IMG/VR virus record: IMGVR_UViG_3300048848_000044
Coordinates: 1 to 46,118 of that record
DNA length: 46,118 nt
Reading direction: 5' to 3' (one strand)
From: a virus
Position 1 is the stretch's first letter. Each line of letters starts with the position of its first letter. The position numbers and the translations under genes were made by a program. Under the pieces are notes generated by a model that did not search any database, had not been told where the DNA came from, and saw nothing but the letters and a program-made list of their open reading frames with translations. Positions 5,460 to 39,176 of the stretch are shown piece after piece.

Positions 5460-6536
5460 TTAAGCCGTCCGGTTGAGCTGGAGCCGAGCCGCGTTGACCG
5501 CCGCAGGAAGCCACCGGGCTCCCGTCTTCGGGTCAATCTCGAACACGTCGCGCCAGTAGGTTTGAGCGACGGTGATCGGGCGGGTTTCGCCTACTGCCGT
5601 CACCGGGCCGGCTCCAGGGCTGGAGATAAGGCCCGTCTGCAAGAAACCGTCGCCGCCGTCGCTCTTCGCCGCGCGAACGTAGGACACGAGAGCCCGCACG
5701 CTGGTAACTTCGTCGGGGAGGTTCGTCATTTCCGCGACGTAGGGCGCCGGCAACGGCAAGTCTTCCGCGAACAGATATTGCGCGTTGTTCGGCGGCGAGT
5801 TGTCCAGGATCGAAAACCCGTTGGCAGCTCCGAACGGCGTCCAGTTAAGCGACACGTCCGCCGACGGGATTAGCGTCGCCACCAGGACCGAGCCCAAGAA
5901 ATCGTTATTCTCGCTGCCGGCGCCGTCCCAAACGACGAAATCCTTGACCCAGTAAAGGACCGTGGGACCGCCGAAGTTATTCGAGTTGCCGAAGCTCGTC
6001 TGCGCAATCTGCGGCGAGCAAGGGATTTGCGGGGTTTCCATGACCGCGCGGCCTTCCACGCGAACTTCGGCGCTAAGCTGCGCCGGGGCGCCGGCCTGAA
6101 CGTCCCACCGGACTTCAATGTGATACCAACCCTTGGCCGTCAGCACGGGGGTTGCCGTCATCGAAATCAAGTTGTCGTTCGGGTCCATGAACGCGATAGC
6201 GCCGGTCGGCGTCACCCGCAAAAAGCCCATCGTATCATTTGCCGCATTGCGGGCGAAAGCGAGCATTGGCGTCGCGACTAAATCGACGGGAAGCGTGTTC
6301 ATCCAGAGACGGAACGCAACGCCCATGCTCGTCACGCCGCCGTTCTGGAGAACGTAGCGAATATCCGTGATCGACGTATTGTTGCCGCCGACTTGGCACC
6401 GCAGCGCTTTGCCCGCCGTGATGCCGTCGGGATCATCGTTGATTTCGACCGGACCGACTTGGGCGTAGACGCCTTCCAGCATCCGAGCGGTTTCGCCCCC
6501 ATAGACGGAAAAATTATCAGCGTGAAGGATCGACAT
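5460..6536 (-). CDS. Virion (tail) structural protein, function unknown
   Basis: 358-aa ORF, tightly packed between the hub-like gene and the 282-aa gene. Beta-rich composition. Confidence 0.6.
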   Translation of the reverse strand: MSILHADNFSVYGGETARMLEGVYAQVGPVEINDDPDGITAGKALRCQVGGNNTSITDIRYVLQNGGVTSMGVAFRLWMNTLPVDLVATPMLAFARNAANDTMGFLRVTPTGAIAFMDPNDNLISMTATPVLTAKGWYHIEVRWDVQAGAPAQLSAEVRVEGRAVMETPQIPCSPQIAQTSFGNSNNFGGPTVLYWVKDFVVWDGAGSENNDFLGSVLVATLIPSADVSLNWTPFGAANGFSILDNSPPNNAQYLFAEDLPLPAPYVAEMTNLPDEVTSVRALVSYVRAAKSDGGDGFLQTGLISSPGAGPVTAVGETRPITVAQTYWRDVFEIDPKTGARWLPAAVNAARLQLNRTA

Positions 6537-10353: not shown

Positions 10354-10389
10354 AAAACAAAAACCCCCTGGCTCGGGTGAACCAGGGGG
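10354..10389 (-). terminator. Rho-independent terminator after the major capsid gene
   Basis: On the minus strand: CCCCCTGG-10 nt loop-CCAGGGGG followed by TTTTTGTTTT. Confidence 0.75.
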
Positions 10390-10428
10390 TTTCCGTCCAC
10401 CCGAACCCGGAGAACTAGGCCGGCCGAA

Positions 10429-20085: not shown

Positions 20086-20116
20086 AAAAACCCCCGGAGC
20101 CACAAGGGTCCGGGGG
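20086..20116 (-). terminator. Rho-independent terminator
   Basis: On the minus strand: CCCCCGGA-10 nt loop-TCCGGGGG followed by TTTTT. Confidence 0.75.
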
Positions 20117-20175
20117 TTCCTCTCGGGATCAAGAGGGCGTCGCCGCTGTCCCTATGCGGGACGCCGGCCGGGACG

Positions 20176-22629: not shown

Positions 22630-22658
22630 GTCGAAATCCCTCTATTGTGAGGGCTCGG

Positions 22659-22687
22659 GCATAGCGCAGCTAACCCCCGGCCGGCAA
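22659..22687 (-). promoter_or_regulatory. Candidate leftward promoter TTGCCG-N17-CTATGC
   Basis: On the minus strand, ~30 nt upstream of ATG 22629. Resembles the alphaproteobacterial CTTGAC-N17-CTATAT type only loosely. Confidence 0.25.
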
Positions 22688-22698
22688 GGGGCTCGGGA

Positions 22699-22713
22699 GG
22701 CGGTCAAACGTCA
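22699..22713. repeat. 15-bp direct repeat GGCGGTCAAACGTCA, copy 2
   Basis: Exact copy of 22294-22308, lying 70 nt upstream of the start of gene 22306-22629. Confidence 0.9.
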
Positions 22714-22985
22714 AAATCCGGTCGGGCTGTCCCATGGTGGAACAGAAATCAGTGCGATCGCTCGTGGATGATTGAGATTATCCCAAGGGGGCGCTTCGCT
22801 GCGGGGAGAATGGCCTGGGTCACGTAAGGGAACCCCGACATGGGAAAATTGGTTGTCGCCGGTATTTCGACTAGGCCCGGCTCGGCAATTCCCAGCACGA
22901 AGCATCCCCCCTCCCCCGGCGATTTTTACCGATAAGCATCCTTTTTTCTTTTCTCGCTGGCCGGCGCGGTCGTCGAGGCTGGACC

Positions 22986-23583
22986 GCTCCCGAGAAATTC
23001 CCGGGCACGAATATTCTCTAGCCTATGCGCAGCTCCGAAGCAATACCGATTTCACGGGCTCGGATAAATTCTCGGAATTCACCGGCACGGCAGCGGGTGG
23101 AGCGTCGGGGCTTTGCGATAATTTCCGTGCCCAAAATTCCTTTCGGATATTCCGGAGAGTTTCGGCGGGTAGCTCCCGAGCGGCGGGAGGGTCAAAGGGT
23201 CTACGCGGGTTCATGATTTAGCGAAATGACCGGGAAAGATTAAAATTGACCTAAGATTTTCGGCGGCGGGTAAATTCACCGGATGCCAGCCGTTTAATTT
23301 GCATCCCGAGCATAAAAATTCCCGGGAGAAATTTCTACCAATCGAAATATTTTTCGGGTGCTTCTAATAGGTGAAATCTCCTTAGTGGAGCGCGCGGCGA
23401 CGAAGCTTTAGCGGAGGCGGCGAAGCGTAACGGATGAAATCCGATAGCCAACGCGCACACGGGCTAGGGGGAATAGCTAAATCAGCCCAATCATAGCCCA
23501 CAACGGCAGAAACCCGACGTTTGCGGCGCCCTATCAATCCGGTCTAAAGTCGCTCTAATCGGGCTTTGCAGCGCGCTCCCGAG
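22986..23583 (+). repeat. Iteron-like repeats in the non-coding control region
   Basis: GCTCCCGAG at 22986, 23172 and 23575, TCCCGAG at 23304, and CTCCCGAG inverted at 22692. AATTCCCGGG at 22996 and 23317. AATTCACCGG at 23076 and 23273. Confidence 0.8.
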
Positions 23584-23731
23584 AGGTACGCGATCAGCGA
23601 TCAATTTGCGGTGATTAGACTAAATCGACGCCGCTTTGATCCAACATCGGCGGATTTCTGCCGTTTTCGGGTATCAATCCGGAATTATCGGGATCAATTT
23701 GAAAAATTACGGGCGAAAAATCAAAATTGAT
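23532..23731 (+). promoter_or_regulatory. ATCAA(T)-box cluster and palindrome upstream of the early promoter
   Basis: TATCAATCCGG at 23532 and 23672. GATCAATTTG at 23599 and 23692. Palindrome ATCAAAATTGAT at 23720-23731, abutting the -35 box. Confidence 0.7.
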
Positions 23732-28548: not shown

Positions 28549-30456
28549 ATGCCGACTTTACCGGAGCAACTAGCCGGCTGCAAGCTCTTTCCTTGCTTGC
28601 CGGGCGATAAGCTCCCCGCAATTGATGGCTGGCAACATCGGGCGACCGATGACGCGGAACAGGTCGAAGAATGGGACCGGCAAATGGCCGGGCTCAATTG
28701 GGGAGTTGTCTGCGGCCTCTCGGGGCTCTTCGTTTTCGATATCGACCCGCAGGGACAAGCGGCGTGGGAAGCTCTCCAGGCGGCTAATCCCGAGCTGCGC
28801 GAAGCCGTTGCACGATCGTTCACCGTCCGGACGCCACGCGGCGGATTTCACCACTATTTCAGGGGCTACGGCCCGACCACGGCAAGCCGCATTGCCGAAG
28901 GTATCGACACGCGCGGCGGCTACCTGGACGAAGCGACCGGCCGGTGGAAGTCGCTTGGCTTCGTCGTCCTCCCGGGCTCAAAAACGGTTGCCGGCCCTAA
29001 GACGGTCGACGGGGAATATGTGGCGCTTGGCGGCGTCCTCGCTTCCATGTCGCCGGCCGTGGCGGGTATTGTGCCCGAGCGCAAGAAAGGCACCGTTCAC
29101 GGGCTGGAGCGTTCGCCCGACCAGGATCAGCCCCGCAATGTGCAATGGGCGCGCGACCTCCTGGAAAACTACGTTCGCGAAGGCCGGGTTTCCGTCGAAG
29201 GGAATGGCGGCAATAACGTAGCTTTCCAGGTTGCCGCCTCAATTCTCGACAAGGCGATTTCTCCCGCGCTCACTTACGAGCTAATGGACGAAATGTGGAA
29301 CCCGCATTGCTCCCCGCCGTGGGACGATTGGGAGCTGGAGCGGATTGTCGGGAACGCCGCGAAATATGGCGAAGAGACGGGGCAAGGCGCCAAGGGTTTC
29401 GAGGATAACCAAAGCGCGTTCGCTGCCTTCGCCGGGATGGAAACGCCGCCCGACGATCCGAAGGCGGAAAAGCCCAAAGGCCGCTTCAAGCCAATGTGGC
29501 TCCGCGATGCGCGGAAAGACGTGCGGGAAGCGAGCTGGCTTGTGCCCGGGTTGCTGCCGTCCAGGGGAACGGGAATTCTCTACGGACTTTCCGGCAGCTA
29601 TAAAACTTTCGTGGCGCTCGATTGGGCGTTGTCGCTCGCGTTCGGGATCGCCGGCCAATGGGGAACGCCGCCCGTCAAGCACAACGTTCTGTTTCTCGCT
29701 GGCGAAAGCTCCTATGCGCTGGCGCAAGAGCGCGTCGATAGCTGGTGCGAATGGCAGGGCGTCGACCCGGACGCTGCCGATTTCGTGATTGTCCGGGGCG
29801 TGCCGGCGTTCAACGATAAGGAAGGCTGGGAAGAAGTCCGCGACGGATTGCGCGGGCTCAATTCCATTCCGCAGCTAGTCGTCGTCGACACGCTCACGCG
29901 CGTTATGTCGGGGATGGACGAAAATTCCAACAATGACGCCAAGCTAGTGCTAAAGCACATGGAAGAAATTTCAGAGCATTACGGTTGTTTCACATTGTCC
30001 ACGGGCCATACCGGCAAGGACGAAGGGCGCGGAATGCGCGGTGCGCAAGTTTTCCTGGATAACAGCGACGCGGTAATCTACGCGAAGAAAACCGGGAACG
30101 GAACAAAACTCCAGGTCAAGAAATTAAAAGAAGTCGATATCCCGGACCAACCGTTCCACATGGAGAAAAAGGTTTTCGGGAAGTCCATCGTTCTCGTGCG
30201 GACCGAGCAAGCCGCGCCGGAAGAGCAAGAGAACGGCAGCAAGGTTAGTTGGGCGCAGACAAGCGAAATCGTCGCCAGGATCGCGAAGCAAGGCGGGAGC
30301 TGCGGCTTCAAAACGCTCTGCCAGGATATCGCGGCGGAATTGCATATCGACCAGAAGAAAATCGAGCGGACGCTTAACGCGAACAAGGATTTGCAGTGGC
30401 TTCGCGAAGGCAACAATTGGCGCTTGCCGCCGACCGATCTGGAGTTTGACCTATGA
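28549..30456 (+). CDS. Bifunctional AEP primase-polymerase / PriCT / RepA-like (AAA_25) helicase; C-terminus LEFDL
   Basis: 635 aa. Prim-pol motifs LFVFDIDPQG and FTVRTPRGGFHHYF. PriCT-like GNGGNNVAFQVAASIL. Walker A GLSGSYKTF and Walker B LVVVDTLTRVM. Confidence 0.85.
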   Translation: MPTLPEQLAGCKLFPCLPGDKLPAIDGWQHRATDDAEQVEEWDRQMAGLNWGVVCGLSGLFVFDIDPQGQAAWEALQAANPELREAVARSFTVRTPRGGFHHYFRGYGPTTASRIAEGIDTRGGYLDEATGRWKSLGFVVLPGSKTVAGPKTVDGEYVALGGVLASMSPAVAGIVPERKKGTVHGLERSPDQDQPRNVQWARDLLENYVREGRVSVEGNGGNNVAFQVAASILDKAISPALTYELMDEMWNPHCSPPWDDWELERIVGNAAKYGEETGQGAKGFEDNQSAFAAFAGMETPPDDPKAEKPKGRFKPMWLRDARKDVREASWLVPGLLPSRGTGILYGLSGSYKTFVALDWALSLAFGIAGQWGTPPVKHNVLFLAGESSYALAQERVDSWCEWQGVDPDAADFVIVRGVPAFNDKEGWEEVRDGLRGLNSIPQLVVVDTLTRVMSGMDENSNNDAKLVLKHMEEISEHYGCFTLSTGHTGKDEGRGMRGAQVFLDNSDAVIYAKKTGNGTKLQVKKLKEVDIPDQPFHMEKKVFGKSIVLVRTEQAAPEEQENGSKVSWAQTSEIVARIAKQGGSCGFKTLCQDIAAELHIDQKKIERTLNANKDLQWLREGNNWRLPPTDLEFDL

Positions 30457-31129: not shown

Positions 31130-31452
31130 CCTACACGACGGAACAGATTGCGCAGGCATCCCGGGCGACGCTCCGGGGCGTGCGGCTTTGGGAAGGCGAA
31201 GGCTTGTTCGGGCTCGTCCCGCGCGATGATCGCGGCAACCGGCTATTCAGCGAAGAGCATATGAGCCGAGCGAAAATCATCACGACGGCGCAAATGGCTG
31301 GCATGAGCCTTGCTGAAATCAAAGCCATGCTGGGGAATTTCAACGCGACGGAACGGCAGAAGTTTTCGGATAGGGTTGTGGAAGCCGTCGGCTTTATGCG
31401 TCGGGCGGCGACGTTCCCGATTGCTCCCGAGCGCGAGGCGTTCGACCTATGA
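31126..31452 (+). CDS. MerR-family transcriptional regulator; C-terminus AFDL
   Basis: 108 aa from ATG 31126 (ATGA overlap). MerR HTH pattern YTTEQIAQASRATLRGVRLWEGEGLF..RDDRGNRLFSEEH...AGMSLAEIKAML. Confidence 0.75.
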   Translation: MTYTTEQIAQASRATLRGVRLWEGEGLFGLVPRDDRGNRLFSEEHMSRAKIITTAQMAGMSLAEIKAMLGNFNATERQKFSDRVVEAVGFMRRAATFPIAPEREAFDL

Positions 31453-33077
31453 GAGTTGAAGCGGGCGGGAACGGAACGTTCGTCCTCCGGGTGCCGCATA
31501 TCCGGAAAGAGGAAGTCGCGGAGCTGATGGCCTACCGGGGGCTTACGTTCTCGACGACGGGCAGCACGCGCGACGAAGCCGTACTATTCAGCACGAACCC
31601 CTATTCCCTTTGCGACCTCGCCCCCAACGTGCCCGCGCTGGCCGGCTACCATGCCGCTATCGCCGCAAGCCGTGCGCTCGACGGGATCGGGACGCGCCGC
31701 TTGCCGCCCGGGAAGGAATTGTGGACCTATCAGCGCGCCGACCTGGACTATCTACTAGCGCGTGGCGGCGGCATTCTCGGGGACCAACCCGGGCTCGGAA
31801 AGACGCCGACGGCTATCGCCTTTTGCAATGAGCTAGAGAGCTTCCGCAATCTCGTCATTGTGCCGGCGTCGCTGCGCCTCCAATGGGCAGCGAAAATCCG
31901 GGAATGGTCGACGATCCCTAACGTTCGCGTGTCGACCATGCTGAACGTGAAGGACGGAATTCACCCGACGGCGCACTATCAGATTATCTCCTACAATGCC
32001 GCGACGAACCCGGCGATTATCCGCGCGCTGCTCAAATACCAATGGCAAGTCCTGATTTGCGACGAAGCCCACGCGATGAAGAACGCGGACGCTATCCGCA
32101 CGCGCGCCATTCTCGGCAACGCGAAAAAGGAATTCGTCCGCAAGGATCAAGAGACGCTGAAAGCCATCGTGACGGCGTGCAAGCATTCGCTGGCGCTGAC
32201 GGGTACGCTGCTGCTCAACCGGCCGAGCGAAGCTTACGTGCTGCTGCGTCACTTCGATTGGGAGTGCATAGATTTCGTCAGTGAGGACAAATTCAAGGAA
32301 CGGTATAACCGCCAAGCCGTTATCAAAACCATCACGGGCAAGCGCCATAACCTGGAAAGCACGAGCCTGGAGAGCGAGCTACAGAACCGGCTGCGGGTGA
32401 ATATCATGACGCGACACGAGAAAAAGGACGTGCTGCCGTTCATGAAGCCCCCGCGCTATGAAGTCGTCCAGCTCTCCGAAACCGGCGCGGTGAAGGCGGC
32501 GCTTGCCGAAGAAGGCTTGCTGGATATCGACATTGAGGACTTCCAGACGCTCAAGAATATCCAGGTTGAAGGGCACGTTGCCGAAGTCCGCCGATTGATG
32601 GGCGTCGCGCTCGCTCCCCAGGTGGCGGAATACGCCGAAGACTGGCTGGACGGCAGCGACGGGGAAAAGCTCGTTATCTTCGGCTGGCATATCGAAGTGC
32701 TGAATATCCTAGAGGAAAAACTGTCCCGGTTCGGTACGATGCGGATCGACGGAAGCGTTTCGACGGTGAACCGCCAGAAAAGGGTCGACGAATTTATTGA
32801 CAACCCGAAAATTCGGGTGTCTATCATGAATATGCAGTCGGGCGGAACCGGCGTGGATGGGCTCCAAAAAGTCTGCTCCCGTTGCTTCCTGGCTGAACCG
32901 GATTGGGTTCCCGCTCAAAACGAGCAAGCCGTTTCAAGGCTGGACCGATACGGGCAAGAGGAATTGGTAACTGCCGAAATCTTTGTGGCGCCCGGCAGCA
33001 TATCGGAGAAAATTCTAGTCAAGGCGCTAGAGAAAATGAACGTGATCCACCGCGTTCTTGACAAGGAAGGAATTTGA
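31449..33077 (+). CDS. SNF2-family (DEAD/H-like) helicase
   Basis: 542 aa. Motifs DQPGLGKT, LICDEAHAMKN, LTGTLLLNRPSE, GGTGVDGLQ and NEQAVSRLDRYGQ. Confidence 0.85.
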   Translation: MRVEAGGNGTFVLRVPHIRKEEVAELMAYRGLTFSTTGSTRDEAVLFSTNPYSLCDLAPNVPALAGYHAAIAASRALDGIGTRRLPPGKELWTYQRADLDYLLARGGGILGDQPGLGKTPTAIAFCNELESFRNLVIVPASLRLQWAAKIREWSTIPNVRVSTMLNVKDGIHPTAHYQIISYNAATNPAIIRALLKYQWQVLICDEAHAMKNADAIRTRAILGNAKKEFVRKDQETLKAIVTACKHSLALTGTLLLNRPSEAYVLLRHFDWECIDFVSEDKFKERYNRQAVIKTITGKRHNLESTSLESELQNRLRVNIMTRHEKKDVLPFMKPPRYEVVQLSETGAVKAALAEEGLLDIDIEDFQTLKNIQVEGHVAEVRRLMGVALAPQVAEYAEDWLDGSDGEKLVIFGWHIEVLNILEEKLSRFGTMRIDGSVSTVNRQKRVDEFIDNPKIRVSIMNMQSGGTGVDGLQKVCSRCFLAEPDWVPAQNEQAVSRLDRYGQEELVTAEIFVAPGSISEKILVKALEKMNVIHRVLDKEGI

Positions 33078-33079
33078 AA

Positions 33080-33784
33080 ATGAGCCTCGTAAACGTTTCG
33101 ATTGCCCTGCCCGCTGCCGCACTCGGCCAGCTTTACGCTTTCCTCGCTTCGACGTGCGGCACCGCCGTAGCTTCGCAGGGCGCGGGAAACTCGACGACTG
33201 GCGCAACCGCTGCGCCTACACCTGTCAGCGCTGCGGCGGACACTCCCGCGAATGTCCAGGCAGCTACGGGGGCCGCTCCGGTGTCTTCGGGCGACGGTGA
33301 GCGCGACGCGGCTGGCGTCCTTTGGGATGAAGCCAAGCACGCTTCGACGAAGGGGAAGACGAAGGCCGGCCTCTGGCGCATGAAGGTGGGCGTTACCCGC
33401 CCGGCCGGTGAAGGCGAAGACGCTATCCAGGGAAATGCCGGCTCTGCGGCGGCTCCGGACAACTCCGCTTCCGGCACTCCCGCCCCGGCATCGTCTACCG
33501 CTGCCCCGGCTGCTGACGAAGACGACGAATTCGCCGCTTTCCGCAACGCTGCCGCTGCGCAGGGCGCCGCCCCGGCTCCCGCTCGCACCTGGACCGACGC
33601 CGACCTGTCGAAGCTCTGCAACCAGGGCGCGATTGCCGCTGGCGGTCCCGATCAGGTCAAGGCGATTATCGCCAAGTACGTGCCGGCCGGCCAGCCCCAG
33701 CATTCGCGCTCGATCCCGAACGAACAGCGCGAGACGTTCGCGCAGGACGTGGAAAAGTCGCTGGGTATCCAGTACGCGGGCTAA
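33080..33784 (+). CDS. Ala/Pro-rich protein with a KTKAGLWRMKVGVTRP module and a DEDDEFAAF patch
   Basis: 234 aa from ATG 33080 with SD GGAAGGA. Shares a module with gene 9290-9697. Confidence 0.65.
   Translation: MSLVNVSIALPAAALGQLYAFLASTCGTAVASQGAGNSTTGATAAPTPVSAAADTPANVQAATGAAPVSSGDGERDAAGVLWDEAKHASTKGKTKAGLWRMKVGVTRPAGEGEDAIQGNAGSAAAPDNSASGTPAPASSTAAPAADEDDEFAAFRNAAAAQGAAPAPARTWTDADLSKLCNQGAIAAGGPDQVKAIIAKYVPAGQPQHSRSIPNEQRETFAQDVEKSLGIQYAG
33362..33402. repeat. 41-nt perfect inverted repeat, arm 2 (partner 9327-9367)
   Basis: AAGGCCGGCCTCTGGCGCATGAAGGTGGGCGTTACCCGCCC, encoding KAGLWRMKVGVTRP in both genes. Confidence 0.9.
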
Positions 33785-33847
33785 TTCGTCCTGGTGCGGT
33801 TCCTTCCACTCGTGGGGATGAAATCTAGCCGCACTAGACAAAACCGG

Positions 33848-33873
33848 GCCGGGGCGGTATATCCCCGGCAACT
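33848..33873 (+). promoter_or_regulatory. Conserved hairpin A: GCCGGGG-CGGTATAT-CCCCGGC-AACT
   Basis: 7-bp stem and 8-nt loop, 43 nt upstream of ATG 33912. TAGACA-N17-TATATC could also be read as a promoter. Confidence 0.7.
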
Positions 33874-33911
33874 ACGATGAAACTCACGAAGCAACGAAAC
33901 AGGAATTCGGT

Positions 33912-35156
33912 ATGGTCGAATTCGAACATTCCCCGCTAGGCGGCTCCGCTGCGAAACGCTTCCTGAATTGCGGAGCGTCGTTTCTGCTCCAGCGGCTCTT
34001 GATCCTCCACAACGAATACGAGCAACCGCCAACGAGCGAGTTTGCTGACAAGGGCAACGCCGCGCACGAGCTTGCTGCGCACTGCCTGCTGAACGACGAC
34101 GAGCCGTTCGAATATATCGGTGAGAAAGTTGGTAAATACACGGTTCACCCGGCCGACCTGGACCCGGAAGCCGTGGCGGTTTACGTCAACTATTGCCGGG
34201 CGATTATGGAGCAAGGCGGGAACCACGCCACGAGCATAATCGAACAGACTTTTCACCTTCGCGACATTCACCCGCTTTTCAAAGGCACGGTCGATTTCGG
34301 GCACTGGCGCTTGCCGGAATTTTCCTGCGATCCCGGCCTATGGCTTGTCGATTACAAGAATGGCGAAGGCATCGGCGTCGAAGCTTACCGCAACCCCCAG
34401 CTCATGTATTACGCCGTGCTGCTGATTATGGCGCACGCGGAGCTTAAGGCGCTGCCGTTCGATTTTCCCGTCCACCTTGGGATTGTGCAGCCGAATTATT
34501 GGGGCGTCTTCGAAGAGCCCGAAATGTGGCACACCACGATTAGGGAAGTCTTCACGTTTGCCAAGCAAGAATTGCTGCCGGCAATGGAAGCGCTGACGAA
34601 CGACAAGCGGGACATGATCCCCGTCGACGAATTCAAGTCTGGCGATCACTGCCAATTCTGCCCGGTGATGCTGGATTGTCCGAAACTGCGCGAGGCTTTC
34701 GAGACATACGCGCACCAAGACGAGTTTATCGAAATGCTCAAGGACGAAGAAATCTCCGCGCTCTACGCTTTGAAGGACGATGCCCGCCGTTACGCGAACG
34801 AGCTGGAGAAAGTCGCTTTCGCCCGCAAGCTCGGCGGCGGCAACATCACCACGGGCAAGCTGGTCGAAAAAATGGTGCATCGCGCCTGGAAGCCCGGCGC
34901 CGAGCAAGCCGCCGTCCAGCGCTTCAAGGAACACGCCTATAACCCGCGCAAGCTCAAGAGCCCGGCGCAGATGGAAAAGCTTTCGAGCGACGCTAAGGCT
35001 TTCGCCCTGGAATGGGGTTTCAAGCCGGAAAGCGATAGGCTCACAATCGCGCCGTTGACCGATAGGCGGGCAGAAGCCAAGCCGATTACCAACGCCGACG
35101 TTTTCAAGAATTTCGCCACGCCGCCAATCGAGAACCTTCACGATCTAGGCTGGTGA
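33912..35156 (+). CDS. Cas4-like PD-(D/E)XK exonuclease (DUF2800-like)
   Basis: 414 aa. N-terminal Cys (FLNCGASF), LVDYKNGEG (D/E-x-K) and a C-terminal Cys cluster CQFCPVMLDCP. Confidence 0.7.
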   Translation: MVEFEHSPLGGSAAKRFLNCGASFLLQRLLILHNEYEQPPTSEFADKGNAAHELAAHCLLNDDEPFEYIGEKVGKYTVHPADLDPEAVAVYVNYCRAIMEQGGNHATSIIEQTFHLRDIHPLFKGTVDFGHWRLPEFSCDPGLWLVDYKNGEGIGVEAYRNPQLMYYAVLLIMAHAELKALPFDFPVHLGIVQPNYWGVFEEPEMWHTTIREVFTFAKQELLPAMEALTNDKRDMIPVDEFKSGDHCQFCPVMLDCPKLREAFETYAHQDEFIEMLKDEEISALYALKDDARRYANELEKVAFARKLGGGNITTGKLVEKMVHRAWKPGAEQAAVQRFKEHAYNPRKLKSPAQMEKLSSDAKAFALEWGFKPESDRLTIAPLTDRRAEAKPITNADVFKNFATPPIENLHDLGW

Positions 35157-35179
35157 TTTCGGGGGTGGTCCCGGGTTCA

Positions 35180-35221
35180 ACCACGAAGCAACCACGAAGC
35201 AACACAAAATACCACGAAGGA
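35180..35221 (+). repeat. Three ACCACGAAG(C/G)A repeats in the SSB mRNA leader
   Basis: ACCACGAAGCA at 35180 and 35191, and ACCACGAAGGA at 35211. The last copy supplies the SD for ATG 35229. Confidence 0.85.
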
Positions 35222-35228
35222 ATAGAAA

Positions 35229-36188
35229 ATGGCCGAGAAGTTCAAATTCGTCTGCACCCAGCCCGCCCGCCTGCTTTTCAGCTCGATCACGCAGAAGTCC
35301 GCACCGCGCACCGTTGCCGGCGCAGAGCCGAAATTCTCCGGAACCTTCGGGCTGGAGAAAGTCGACTTCGACTTGATTATCCCCGAAATGGTCAAGGGGA
35401 TCACGAGCGAGACGGGCGGTTTCTCCGGGAACCCGAACGACTACTATCTGGCGTGCATGGGCGGCAATACCGCAGCGGCCCGCGTGATGCAGAAAGCCGA
35501 GCTGGATGCCCAAGCCCTTCGCGGGCAGGGGAAGAATGACGACGCTTTCAAGGCGCTCGAAAAGGCGCAGAAGCGCGCGGACCTCTACAAGCAATACGCT
35601 GGCATCCTCCAGGCGTCTTCGAAATTCGATATCGAGCTGGCGAAGCTCTACAACGGCGCCATCGTCGATATTAAATCCGAGAGCGACCGCGCCCTTGCTG
35701 GCAAGGAAATGTTCTACTCGGGCGCCTACGTCGTGCCGTCCATCGCGCTCCAGGGCTTCCGTCGCAAGAAGCTCGATGACCGCGACGGCGTTACCGCTTT
35801 CCTCCAGAACGTGCTTTTCATCCGCAAGGGCGAGAAAATCGACACGGGCGGCGGTCCTTCGAATTCGGAAGTCTTCGGCGGCTTCGCCAACTACTCCGAT
35901 TACGATCCGACGGCCAACGCCCCGGGCGGCAGCAATTGGGACAATCCGGGAAACGGCACGGGTGCCAGCCAATCGCAGGGGGCGGGTTCGTCTGCGGGCG
36001 GTAACGATCAGTGGAACCAGGGCGCCGGCAACCAGGGCCAGAACGGTCAAGGCGGCAACCAGGGCGGGCAGAACGCCGGCAATCAGGGCGGCTACAACCC
36101 ACAGAACGGTCAGGGCGGCTATCAGCCCCAGGGCGGTTTCCAGGGCAATCAAGGCGGGCAGCAAGGGAACGACGCCCCGCAGTGGTAA
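35229..36188 (+). CDS. Single-stranded DNA-binding protein (T7 gp2.5/DUF2815-like) with a long Gly/Gln/Asn-rich tail
   Basis: 319 aa. OB-like core with FYSGAYVVPSIALQGF...GVTAFLQNVLFIRKGEKI. About 100 aa of GNQG-type low complexity ending in NDAPQW. Lies in the replication module next to the DUF2800-like nuclease. Confidence 0.65.
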   Translation: MAEKFKFVCTQPARLLFSSITQKSAPRTVAGAEPKFSGTFGLEKVDFDLIIPEMVKGITSETGGFSGNPNDYYLACMGGNTAAARVMQKAELDAQALRGQGKNDDAFKALEKAQKRADLYKQYAGILQASSKFDIELAKLYNGAIVDIKSESDRALAGKEMFYSGAYVVPSIALQGFRRKKLDDRDGVTAFLQNVLFIRKGEKIDTGGGPSNSEVFGGFANYSDYDPTANAPGGSNWDNPGNGTGASQSQGAGSSAGGNDQWNQGAGNQGQNGQGGNQGGQNAGNQGGYNPQNGQGGYQPQGGFQGNQGGQQGNDAPQW

Positions 36189-36224
36189 TCCCGTAGGGCG
36201 ATAACGCCCCGGGTCGCAACCGGC

Positions 36225-36250
36225 GCCGCAGCGGTATATCTGCGGCAACT
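36225..36250 (+). promoter_or_regulatory. Conserved hairpin B: GCCGCAG-CGGTATAT-CTGCGGC-AACT
   Basis: Same loop and 3' AACT as hairpin A. Two stem positions differ and both are compensated. Lies 27 nt upstream of ATG 36273. Confidence 0.7.
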
Positions 36251-36272
36251 CTCTCGGGATGGAGAATTCACA

Positions 36273-36503
36273 ATGGAAACTCGAAGCGCCTATGGCCTTT
36301 CCGGCTCCGGATACCGGCACGCCGTCAAAGCTCTCGGGGTTTGGTTCTACAAGCGGACCCATATTCAACGTTGGGCGCCGCTGTATGACGAATACGAAAT
36401 CGAACGCGGGATTAAAATCGGCCGGCTAATAATTTCGGTTCGGCGGCAAATCCAGCATTTCAAGGACGGCGAAAAGCCATCGCATAAGGATGCGCGCTGG
36501 TGA
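36273..36503 (+). CDS. Hypothetical protein
   Basis: 76-aa ORF with SD GGAG upstream. Confidence 0.6.
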   Translation: METRSAYGLSGSGYRHAVKALGVWFYKRTHIQRWAPLYDEYEIERGIKIGRLIISVRRQIQHFKDGEKPSHKDARW

Positions 36504-37012: not shown

Positions 37013-37167
37013 GCCCTTGGCATTATCGCAGGATCAAATTCGTTACGTGCGAGCCGCAGATTGCTCCGAACGGGGACACGGTGCGGCTTTTCGTCCATGT
37101 GAAGAATAGCGACCGCAAAAGTCCTTTCCGTCAAACCAACTACGCTCTAGGTACTATCGGGCTATGA
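37009..37167 (+). CDS. Hypothetical small protein
   Basis: 52 aa (MSPWHYRRIKFVTCEPQ...). ATGA overlaps at both ends. Confidence 0.45.
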   Translation: MSPWHYRRIKFVTCEPQIAPNGDTVRLFVHVKNSDRKSPFRQTNYALGTIGL

Positions 37168-39176
37168 AATACGTCGTCCTGGATTTCGAAAGCGCTTCGG
37201 CGTGCGACCTCACGAAATCCGGGGCGTGGCGCTATGCGCAAGATTTCTCGACGTTCCTCACGCACGTTGGGTTCAAGCTGGTCAGCTATAATCAGCCCCA
37301 GCGCACGCGGGTCATTTGGGGCAACGCCGTCAACCGCGTGGACGCCGAATTGCACGAGCTGGCTTCCGATCCGGAAGTGATGTTCGTCGCGCATAACTGT
37401 TCGTTCGAAATCGGCATGTTCAAAGAACACATGGTTTCGCTCGGCTACCCCATGATCCCGAATGAGCGCTGGCACGACACGATGGCCGTCGCCGCTATGA
37501 AGTCCCTGCCGCTCGGGCTGGACGCGCTTATCCGCGCGCTGGAATTGCCCGTGCAGAAGGACATGGAAGGCCATCGGCTCATGCTACGGCTCTGCAAGCC
37601 CGACAAGGAAGGTGGCTGGTCGCACCATACCCAGGATGCGCTTTCCCGGGAAGCTCAATACAACGTAACCGACGTGGACGGGCAATTCGGCGTCCATCTG
37701 GCGCTAGGCGGGCTCGGGCACGACGAACGGCAAGTGTGGCTGGCCGATCAGCGGATAAATCAACGCGGCGTCCTGGTCGACGTGAAATTCATAAATGCTT
37801 GCATGGACGTGCTTGACCAAGTGCGCGTCCCGATGACGGCGGAATTCAAGCAAATCACCGGGGGCATTGCGCCAACGCAGCGTGAGAAATTCCTAAATTG
37901 GGTGAATGAGCAAGGCGTCGCTATGAGCGACATGAAAAAAGCCACGCTCGACGCCATGCTGGACCCGGACGACGAATTCGGTTTCGAGGATCTGGATCAG
38001 CTCGGCTTCGAACCGCTCCCCTACCATGTCCACCGGGCGCTCTCGCTGCGCCGTTCGCTCGCGTCGTCGTCCGTCGCTAAGCTGGAGCGTATGTTGCGGT
38101 GCGCCTCGAATGACGGGCGCGTGCGCTATACCATGCAATACCATGGGGCGGGCACGGGACGTTGGGCCGGCCGTCTTATCCAAATCCAGAATTATCCCCG
38201 GGGCGAAATCCAAGAGCGCCAGGGGCTCACTCCAGAAATTCTAGCTGACGCGATCCTTTCCCGCGACTTGAACCGCATCCGGGATTTGTGGGGCGACGAC
38301 ATATTCAGCGCGATCATTTCGAGCCTGCGGAGCTGCATCGTTCCCGATGTGTCGAAGGGCCGCGTTCTAGCCGTGGGCGACTTCGCGCAAGTCGAGGCGC
38401 GCAACGTACTGTCCTTCGCCGGCCACCATGACCGCGCATTTGAAATGGACAGTACGGACGCTTACGCCGAGCTGGGGTCTATGATTTTCAAACGGCCGAT
38501 CAATAAGCACGACAACCCGAAAGAGCGGCAGATTGGAAAGAACGGACTGCTAGGTTCGGGGTTCGGGCTCGGGCCGCTTGGCTTTCAGGCGAAATTCGCG
38601 CCTAACGAGCCTTTCGAGCTGGCAAAGCTGGCTATCGACACGTACCGCAAGGATTACGCGCCGCTGGTGCCTAAATTCTGGTACGGGCTCTATCAAGCGT
38701 CGGTGGACGCTGTATGGTGCAACGAAGCGCGCACCTACGTTTTCCAGGGGATCGAATTCCGCCGTGAAGGTGAATTCCTCTCGATGCGCCTGCCGAGCGG
38801 CCGCAAAATCTGGTATCACCGGCCTTGCCGAGAAAAGTCGTTCAACCCCGTCACGCGGAACGAATACCCGGCGTGGTCCTATATGTCCTATCAGGGCAAG
38901 AAGTTTCGCCGTAACTTCATGTGGTACGGGCAGCTCATGAACAATCTAGTCCAGGGCTCGGCTCGCGATCTAGTCGTGAACGGTATCTTTATCTGCGAAC
39001 AACAAAACATGCCCGTGGTATTCACCGCGCACGACGAAATTGTTGTCGAGACGGAAGACAGGCCAGGGCTCGCTCTTATGCTCAAGCAAATCATGGAAGA
39101 CATTCCAGCTTGGGCGCGGGAACGCCGGTTCAACGTGAAGGCGGAAACCGACACTATGATAAGGTATCGGAAATGA
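37164..39176 (+). CDS. Family A DNA polymerase with 3'-5' exonuclease domain
   Basis: 670 aa. Exo motifs VVLDFESAS, HNCSFEIGMF and YNVTDVD. Pol motif A VGDFAQVEARNVL, motif B RQIGKNGLLGSGFGLG and motif C FTAHDEIVVE. Confidence 0.9.
   Translation: MKYVVLDFESASACDLTKSGAWRYAQDFSTFLTHVGFKLVSYNQPQRTRVIWGNAVNRVDAELHELASDPEVMFVAHNCSFEIGMFKEHMVSLGYPMIPNERWHDTMAVAAMKSLPLGLDALIRALELPVQKDMEGHRLMLRLCKPDKEGGWSHHTQDALSREAQYNVTDVDGQFGVHLALGGLGHDERQVWLADQRINQRGVLVDVKFINACMDVLDQVRVPMTAEFKQITGGIAPTQREKFLNWVNEQGVAMSDMKKATLDAMLDPDDEFGFEDLDQLGFEPLPYHVHRALSLRRSLASSSVAKLERMLRCASNDGRVRYTMQYHGAGTGRWAGRLIQIQNYPRGEIQERQGLTPEILADAILSRDLNRIRDLWGDDIFSAIISSLRSCIVPDVSKGRVLAVGDFAQVEARNVLSFAGHHDRAFEMDSTDAYAELGSMIFKRPINKHDNPKERQIGKNGLLGSGFGLGPLGFQAKFAPNEPFELAKLAIDTYRKDYAPLVPKFWYGLYQASVDAVWCNEARTYVFQGIEFRREGEFLSMRLPSGRKIWYHRPCREKSFNPVTRNEYPAWSYMSYQGKKFRRNFMWYGQLMNNLVQGSARDLVVNGIFICEQQNMPVVFTAHDEIVVETEDRPGLALMLKQIMEDIPAWARERRFNVKAETDTMIRYRK

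Follow-up and report, generated by a model that had tools for sequence, protein, structure and literature searches.

The 46,118-nt viral DNA of IMG/VR record IMGVR_UViG_3300048848_000044, referred to here as the window (~46 kb, ~60% GC), contains two short hairpins with the same loop in its replication arm, and the question raised by this locus is what kind of element has been placed there twice. Copy A, GCCGGGG-CGGTATAT-CCCCGGC-AACT, is located at 33848–33873, and copy B, GCCGCAG-CGGTATAT-CTGCGGC-AACT, at 36225–36250. The two copies share the loop and the 3′ AACT, and their stems differ only at positions 5 and 6, both differences being compensated, just as an initial annotation of the sequence had reported. 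Its description of their location also holds: both lie between genes, copy A in a 127-nt gap (33785–33911) upstream of a nuclease gene and copy B in an 84-nt gap (36189–36272) downstream of a gene for a single-stranded DNA (ssDNA)-binding protein (SSB). The reading preferred here, at roughly even confidence and from comparison of sequences, is that the hairpins are helix 2 of pseudoknots in the sense RNA, which would act in cis as mRNA end-structures or processing boundaries around the nuclease–SSB segment.

Within the window, the element is confined to these two places. A pattern with stem positions 5 and 6 left free and up to three mismatches allowed gave exactly two matches (vs. 0 in 100 shuffles), and a search of the window with a covariance model also returned exactly two copies. 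Hairpin enumeration detected no other hairpin with a TATA-containing loop in the window. The folding energies of copies A and B are −15.4 and −13.8 kcal/mol, with z values of −1.1 and −1.4, respectively, which are ordinary for GC-rich 43-mers. Thermodynamics alone proves nothing in this case, and the significance of the element therefore lies in its recurrence and covariation.

The conserved unit is about 35 nt long and consists of ACCG, 1–2 nt, the first strand of a 6–8 bp stem, CGGU-AUAU, the returning strand of the stem, and AAC. The initial annotation correctly recognized a selected secondary structure, but, in treating it as a simple hairpin with an 8-nt loop, drew the unit too narrowly: the supposed loop is made up of CGGU, which pairs with the upstream ACCG, and a 4-nt crossing loop, AUAU. 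ACCG is found 1–2 nt 5′ of the stem in all copies, and AAC follows the stem directly in almost all of them. Indeed, ACCG was recovered by a metagenome scan though the search pattern had left it unspecified. Whatever the length of the stem (6–8 bp), ACCG and AAC flank the helix at its base. Such a constant position relative to the helix is expected if the functional form is the folded one, and not if a protein reads linear duplex DNA at fixed spacing.

Helix 2, the stem of the two hairpins, is 99.2% paired over 17 sequences, with all seven pairs changed on both sides and none of 500 shuffles reaching the observed value; this sample was partly selected for pairing, and the non-circular evidence is the enrichment in scans together with the relatives chosen by their polymerase. 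The scans were pattern scans of public collections in which the stem was wholly or partly unspecified. When the stem was fully unspecified, all seven pairs were complementary in 4 of 40 loci, compared with ~0.002 expected, and when four pairs were left free, all four were complementary in 5 of 57 loci, compared with ~0.2 expected. With 16 distinct stems, all of them paired, the selected secondary structure is strongly supported beyond the two compensated positions first noticed.

Helix 1 is ACCG/CGGU in the canonical copies. In two relatives of the window phage (genomes, contigs, and loci other than the window are denoted by L numbers), it is replaced by CCCG/CGGG (L488) and CGCG/CGCG (L491), giving three compensated pair changes at homologous, syntenic sites. 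Some relatives have, immediately on one side or the other of the SSB gene, a sister pseudoknot in which helix 2 is constant (UGGCAGAC/GUCUGCCA) and helix 1 takes six differing complementary sequences (CUCG/CGAG, GUGCG/CGCAC, CUUCG/CGAAG, CCCG/CGGG, UCCG/CGGA, and UCG/CGA); its two variable pairs are of the UA/CG/GC and UA/CG types, and the observed score is reached by 3 of 500 shuffles. Neither the window nor ~4.5 Mb of other loci compared contains the sister pseudoknot. Loop lengths also fit an H-type fold, with loop 1 (1–2 nt) crossing a helix 2 of 6–8 bp and loop 3 (at least 4 nt) crossing a helix 1 of 3–5 bp. As both helices covary, the element is a real, conserved H-type pseudoknot motif, with moderate support for helix 1, for which the sequences are few. 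The motif is previously uncatalogued; a cmscan search of Rfam 15 gave no match for the window, its relatives, or the integrated islands described below, even at E ≤ 10, and a literature search by loop sequence returned only unrelated sequence matches.

The order of the parts on the sense strand is the 5′ strand of helix 1, a 1–2 nt linker, the 5′ strand of helix 2, the 3′ strand of helix 1 without a spacer, a loop of at least 4 nt, and the 3′ strand of helix 2. In classical H-type pseudoknots, one or two nucleotides can cross the deep groove of a 6–8 bp helix. On the antisense strand, where the topology is mirrored, 1–2 nt would have to span the shallow groove over 7 bp, and this is stereochemically infeasible. 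Since the linker spans the deep groove only in the sense topology, the fold is sterically possible on the sense strand alone. There are five G·U pairs on the sense strand vs. two sites that are G·U only on the antisense strand. The sister element has an A-rich loop 3 (AAAA, GGAAAAC), and, in relatives, the SSB stop codon is followed at once by a CCC(GUAA)GGG or C(UUCG)G mini-hairpin, then UCGCA, and then the pseudoknot. GNRA and UUCG tetraloops are known to stabilize RNA rather than DNA. Together, the topology, the G·U pairs, the A-rich loop 3, the tetraloops, and the co-orientation with genes favor RNA over ssDNA as the folding molecule. Stable tetraloops were used as an argument for RNA in the same way for the STAXI motif (Weinberg et al., 2010; PMC2864571).

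Thirteen further genomes of the window's phage group were picked by polymerase similarity alone (61–80% identity), and the two syntenic gaps (sites A and B) were compared in fifteen genomes, counting the window, L001, and L008. The canonical motif is present at site A in the window, L001, L485, L493, and L494, and at site B in the window, L001, L008, and L493, as well as in L494 with UUAU as loop 3. Variant motifs are found at site B of L488 and site A of L491, while site B of L485 contains a degenerate, terminator-like derivative. In total, four genomes (the window, L001, L493, and L494) have the motif at both sites and four (L008, L485, L488, and L491) at one site. The other relatives keep the flanking genes, and the same gaps contain the sister pseudoknot, long GC hairpins, or hairpins with U-tracts. 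The initial annotation had reasoned that relatives keeping the genes and not the hairpin would speak against the element. About half of the relatives do so, yet they still keep a structured element at the site. The presence of other stable structures at the same sites suggests a structural role in mRNA.

Among the carriers found by the scans, L001 and L008 are relatives of the window phage. The motif was also found in phage contigs without detectable proteins in common with the window (L028, L029, L032/L041, L040, L046, L093, L101/L106, L431, L479, L480, and L482), and in four integrated islands in gammaproteobacterial metagenome-assembled genomes (two complete chromosomes and two contigs), one of which lies beside genes for transfer-messenger RNA (tmRNA) and an integrase. 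The GC content of the carriers ranges from 34 to 66%. True copies are all intergenic and co-oriented with the flanking genes wherever gene orientation can be called, and many are located 1–31 nt from the upstream stop codon. The units are single, except that L028 has a degenerate second copy 57 nt away. Several matches were rejected as members: L393 lies inside the coding sequence of a T7-like SSB, L047 and L091 lie inside open reading frames (ORFs), and the abundant GCCGTAT...TTACGGC matches all come from a single phage lineage in which the stem is mismatched and ACCG is missing from the flank. A shared partner protein encoded nearby was also rejected, as an all-against-all BLASTP comparison of the flanking ORFs gave one weak pair between unrelated true carriers, and the sole strong pair involved the false member L393.

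Two of these settings deserve description. In the 34% GC phage contig L479 (2768–2874), the motif ends 5 nt before a tRNA-Met gene, and an RNA-ligase-like gene is nearby. In the gammaproteobacterial islands (L131, 3200–3860 on the minus strand; L110; L111; and L126), the motif is preceded by an extended −10 promoter-like site, TGGTATACT. The motif is the first part of a conserved non-coding leader of ~540 nt, which contains a G·U-rich terminator-like hairpin and leads to a Phage_int_SAM_2/Integrase_1 gene. Plasmid homologues of this Integrase_1-type gene are paired with a conjugative coupling protein, and the leader may be a region resembling an origin of transfer (oriT) or a regulatory region.

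No RNA polymerase was found among the window ORFs scanned, large ORFs included, in agreement with the initial annotation, and the phage must therefore be transcribed by the host polymerase. In the preferred reading, copies A and B would be stable, cis-acting mRNA end-structures or processing boundaries that bracket the nuclease–SSB segment of a long replication operon read by the host RNA polymerase. They would protect this segment from exonucleolytic decay and thereby set its abundance relative to the neighboring cistrons. As a further possibility, the pseudoknot together with the unstructured CA-rich leader could be a loading site for the phage SSB, with translational feedback as in T4 gene 32. 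A role in mRNA is favored because the copies bracket the nuclease–SSB block (in the window, L001, L493, and L494), lie near stop codons, are followed by G-poor repeat leaders of the type ACCACGAAGAAAC, and have ordinary hairpins at the corresponding sites of relatives. Among the roles listed in the initial annotation, that of an mRNA processing or stability site fits the evidence best, although we infer it rather than observe it.

Several observations weigh against this reading. The covariation of helix 1 comes from few sequences, namely two variants and six sister elements, and a variant in L220 breaks one helix 1 pair. A generic pseudoknot scan was not enriched in the window (32 vs. ~61 in shuffles), so the pseudoknot is drawn from homologous comparison only. 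Moreover, CGGUAUAU, ACCG, and AAC are strictly conserved across unrelated phages, which suggests recognition by a specific partner, and a plain decay barrier would not need that. Finally, one copy abuts a tRNA gene (L479) and others lie shortly 3′ of promoter-like sites, and a transcription-linked role fits these copies as well.

Other explanations invoke a host machine or place the element in transcription. It is conceivable, if rather unlikely, that it represents a new, widespread class of phage and mobile-element RNA whose invariant CGGUAUAU/ACCG/AAC face is read by a universal host machine; it could then be a bacterial counterpart of exoribonuclease-resistant RNAs or a factor-independent signal to RNA polymerase, and would serve phages in insulating or boosting selected blocks of genes. 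A signal in nascent RNA that acts on host RNA polymerase during elongation, either a put- or nut-like antiterminator or a pause element, is improbable. Such a signal would agree with the sigma-70-like promoters 15–45 nt 5′ of the element in L040, L482, and the gammaproteobacterial islands, with the terminator-like hairpins at the same sites in relatives, and with the invariant loop and flanks, which suggest a universal partner such as RNA polymerase. However, no promoter-like site is detectable 5′ of the window copies, none of the ORFs scanned, which were part of the full set, was recognized as an N, Q, or NusG-paralogue gene, and the element bears no evident resemblance to boxA/boxB or put RNA. 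With respect to lambda nut and HK022 put, only the position is suggestive, owing to the promoter-like sites upstream in L040, L482, and the islands. The initial annotation had also proposed a promoter. Considered here in duplex or extruded hairpin form, the promoter would have TATAT as the −10 box and start transcription at the A of AAC. The count of TAGACA-N17-TATATC given for copy A in that annotation is correct, AAC starts 7 nt after TATAT in the 7-bp copies, and many copies are located 5–45 nt 5′ of a gene start, that of a tRNA gene included. Yet a −35-like hexamer at 17 bp is present only in copy A, with a spacing of 14–15 nt in the other copies, and position 6 of the −10 hexamer is a stem base, mostly C and rarely T. 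The ACCG–TATAT and TATAT–AAC distances change with stem length; over the 6–8 bp range of stems, each flank (ACCG or AAC) is displaced by as much as 2 bp, which departs from the fixed spacing of sigma-70 promoters. Two separate promoter scans failed to call the element, the promoter-like sites in the control region of the window are of a different style (TTGACC-N17-TAAATA/TAGTTT), no phage RNA polymerase was found among the ORFs scanned, and covariation of helix 1 would be meaningless in a duplex promoter. In view of the spacing, the hexamer content, the moving flanks, and the helix 1 covariation, the promoter role is not supported and is highly improbable. Early promoters of coliphage N4 have a 5–7 bp stem and a 3-nt loop, require the hairpin form, and need the virion RNA polymerase. 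The element resembles them in having a short GC stem and a conserved loop in a phage genome, but its loop is 8 nt long and pairs with the upstream flank, and no RNA polymerase was found in the large ORFs.

Two further explanations link the element to DNA replication proteins. The mRNA of T4 and T2 gene 32 has an autoregulatory pseudoknot with a short loop 1, a ~7-bp helix, and an unstructured leader. The present element is likewise a small H-type pseudoknot with a very short loop 1 across a ~7-bp helix and an unstructured leader after it, and it is likewise found in a phage replication module in linkage with an SSB gene. It might be a translational operator that nucleates cooperative binding of the phage SSB to the CA-rich leader and, once free SSB builds up, shuts off translation of the next gene, although this is unlikely. 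The architecture fits, as the pseudoknot is followed by a G-poor repeat leader of 25–45 nt up to the ribosome-binding site; the sister pseudoknot lies directly 5′ of the SSB gene in L485, L486, L489, and L494; and the element adjoins SSB-type genes in the window family and in L032/L041. In contrast, neither window copy precedes the SSB gene, one being 5′ of the nuclease gene and the other 3′ of the SSB gene, so that the position seen in T4 gene 32, at the 5′ edge of the SSB gene leader, is occupied by the sister element in those four relatives and by neither copy in the window. There is no evident sequence similarity to the T4/T2 pseudoknot, and SSB binding is putative here. The unrelated carriers encode unrelated SSBs or none nearby, the motif precedes unrelated genes, with downstream targets that include an HNH gene, a DUF1643 gene, a tRNA gene, and the 540-nt leader, and islands carry it too; moreover, some leaders are only 7–9 nt long. 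A signal for priming or initiation, folded in sense-strand ssDNA while the DNA is replicated or transferred, takes up the primase idea of the initial annotation and has a low probability. It would suit the location of the element in replication modules beside SSB, PrimPol, primase-helicase, and nuclease genes and, in the islands, 5′ of the integrase-like gene whose plasmid homologues are paired with a coupling protein, and G·T wobbles are tolerated in DNA also. Nevertheless, the primases of the carriers are unrelated (PrimPol vs. the gp4-like primase-helicase of L093), the UUCG/GNRA mini-hairpins and the A-rich loop 3 are hallmarks of RNA, all copies are co-oriented with transcription, and the plasmids with a homologous integrase-like gene do not contain the motif.

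The element was also compared with other known systems, and several of these readings were rejected. The element is not an intrinsic terminator, since the sense strand continues with AACUACGAUG or AACUCUCUCG and has no U-tract; a terminator scan listed copy A on the minus strand only, where no gene runs. The window does have hairpins whose stem is preceded by an A-tract and followed by a T-tract, at 10361–10392 and 20089–20118. A mimic of clustered regularly interspaced short palindromic repeats (CRISPR), in the manner of a solitary repeat or RNA anti-CRISPR, was rejected because the 27 loci matched in a scan of 185,579 species genomes were all solitary and outside any array; the scan pattern had a fixed loop and flanks and could miss diverged repeats. 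The core site of a tyrosine recombinase (7-bp arms and an 8-bp spacer) was rejected as well, since variable arms around a constant spacer are the reverse of such sites. For STAXI (RF01728), the Rfam covariance model gave no match, whether at the gathering score or at E ≤ 10. The STAXI motif consists of 2–3 pseudoknot units in tandem with UUCG tetraloops and was reported from Enterobacteriales (PMC2864571). Like the present element, it is built of pseudoknot units and occurs in mobile elements close to genes for SSBs, integrases, and other DNA-handling proteins, and the choice between RNA and ssDNA has been raised for both, with stable tetraloops arguing for RNA; however, the window units are single, 2.4 kb apart, and have the CGGUAUAU loop, whereas those of STAXI are tandem and UUCG-looped. 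Stabilizers of the repetitive extragenic palindromic (REP) type and protective 5′ or 3′ stem-loops of bacterial and phage mRNAs are similar in being stable, GC-rich, located between cistrons of one operon, and free of a U-tract, and the replacement of the element by other hairpins at the same sites in relatives is a further likeness. Yet REP-type hairpins need no conserved loop, flanks, or pseudoknot, while the element conserves all of these across unrelated genomes. An invariant loop on a covarying stem is also reminiscent of the rolling-circle origins of HUH-Rep proteins; pairing of the loop with a flank is not a feature of such origins, and no Rep was seen among the ORFs scanned, which covered the small ORFs in part.

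To date, few cis-acting RNA structures of phages have been catalogued outside a handful of model phages, and this one is common to unrelated phages and integrated islands of very different base composition. If the element sets mRNA ends or controls polymerase, it would account for the ability of phages reliant on host RNA polymerase to adjust expression within long replication operons. At 35 nt, it is small enough for direct biochemical tests, and it could be of use in engineering as a compact insulator. In any case, it can be put forward with good reason as a candidate RNA family.

The window has the appearance of a complete phage genome, with a minus-strand structural arm (portal, terminase, major head, and SLT-domain proteins) and a plus-strand replication arm that contains both copies. 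Among cultured phages, there was no DNA match to the window region and no BLASTN match to the motif, and the relatives of the window nuclease in deposited phages are only distant (<60% identity). The features of the locus and those placed in relatives are listed in Table 1.

Table 1. Positions of the pseudoknot parts, neighboring genes, and related features in the window and in relatives.
Feature	Genome	Position	Strand	Remarks
PrimPol-helicase gene	Window	28549–30456	+	
SNF2 helicase gene	Window	31449–33077	+	
236-aa gene	Window	33074–33784	+	No family match; stop codon 58 nt before copy A; kept in relatives
Copy A, helix 1, 5′ strand (ACCG)	Window	33843–33846	+	Complementary to 33855–33858
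Copy A, helix 2 (GCCGGGG/CCCCGGC)	Window	33848–33854 / 33863–33869	+	Sequence, parse, and covariation counts
Copy A, helix 1, 3′ strand (CGGU)	Window	33855–33858	+	Enclosed by helix 2
Copy A, loop 3 (AUAU)	Window	33859–33862	+	Enclosed by helix 2
Copy A, 3′ AAC	Window	33870–33872	+	Base of helix 2; in nearly all copies whatever the stem length
CA-rich leader (ACGAUGAAACUCACGAAGCAACGAAAC...)	Window	33873–33911	+	Up to the nuclease start codon; from sequence
DUF2800 / PD-(D/E)XK nuclease gene	Window	33912–35156	+	First gene of the bracketed segment
Enc34/gp2.5-type SSB gene	Window	35229–36188	+	Last gene of the bracketed segment
Copy B, upstream context	Window	36190–36218	+	Small hairpins CCCGUAGGG and GGGCGAUAACGCCC, then GGGUCGCA; directly after the SSB stop codon
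Copy B, helix 1, 5′ strand (ACCG)	Window	36219–36222	+	
Copy B, 2-nt linker (GC)	Window	36223–36224	+	
Copy B, helix 2 (GCCGCAG/CUGCGGC)	Window	36225–36231 / 36240–36246	+	Sequence, parse, and covariation
Copy B, helix 1, 3′ strand (CGGU)	Window	36232–36235	+	
Copy B, loop 3 (AUAU)	Window	36236–36239	+	
Copy B, 3′ AAC	Window	36247–36249	+	Then a 23-nt leader with GGAG up to the ATG at 36273
Small ORF, 76 aa	Window	36273–36503	+	Directly 3′ of copy B; start of a run of small ORFs
Family A DNA polymerase gene	Window	37164–39176	+	
Sister pseudoknot	L485	7455		Directly before or after the SSB gene
Sister pseudoknot	L486	8299		Directly before or after the SSB gene
Sister pseudoknot	L487	9959		Directly before or after the SSB gene
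Sister pseudoknot	L489	7912 and 9050		Directly before or after the SSB gene
Sister pseudoknot	L494	3946		Directly before or after the SSB gene
Accessory-gene locus	L486	8050–8280		
Accessory-gene locus	L485	1703–2758		
Accessory-gene locus	L487	4464–4685		

The leader that follows copy A belongs to a wider type. Repeats of the ACGAAGAAAC type, similar to the copy A leader, are found 3′ of the element in relatives too, and G-poor leaders built on ACCACGA(A/U)G(A/C)AAC are present at 33873–33911 and 35175–35228 of the window, at 5690–5740 of L001, and in L485, L493, and L494. They lie upstream of nuclease, SSB, and other replication genes, their style is conserved across relatives, and they could be translation enhancers or SSB-binding tracts. 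In the gap between the nuclease and SSB genes (35157–35200), there is a small hairpin, UUCGGG-GGUGGU-CCCGGG, whose loop bases GUGGU are complementary to an ACCAC a few bases downstream, an arrangement shared with L493. This may be a second kind of pseudoknot, located in the SSB leader.

The two arms of the window are separated by ~1.1 kb of non-coding DNA (22640–23720) with repeated boxes resembling AAATTCCCGGG and AATTTCCGTGCC. Promoter-like sites facing the replication arm are found at ~23733 (TTGACC-N17-TAAATA) and ~24539 (TTGACC-N17-TAGTTT), and the region with these sites is probably the early control region. Over the whole window, 9-mers resembling CGGTATATC (up to one mismatch) number 21 vs. 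6.3 expected, most of them running in the direction of the genes in their arm. Apart from copies A and B, none of them is in a hairpin of this kind, and the excess may reflect codon or oligonucleotide bias.

Some variation was also seen around the two sites in relatives. At site A of L488 (255–468), which is the gap before a small ORF preceding the nuclease gene, a tRNA-like fragment, GAGTTCGAATCCTGCCG, which looks like a T-arm, replaces the pseudoknot. In L001, the motif and the nuclease gene are separated by an extra 85-aa ORF (5741–5998), a local partial duplication, given its resemblance to the C-terminal part of the upstream 243-aa gene. An Acb2/Tad1-like gene between the nuclease and SSB genes, a tyrosine integrase gene, and a gene for a GcrA-like regulator are accessory genes at variable positions in relatives. 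The GcrA-like gene suggests an alphaproteobacterial host, and the tyrosine integrase gene suggests that some of these phages are temperate.

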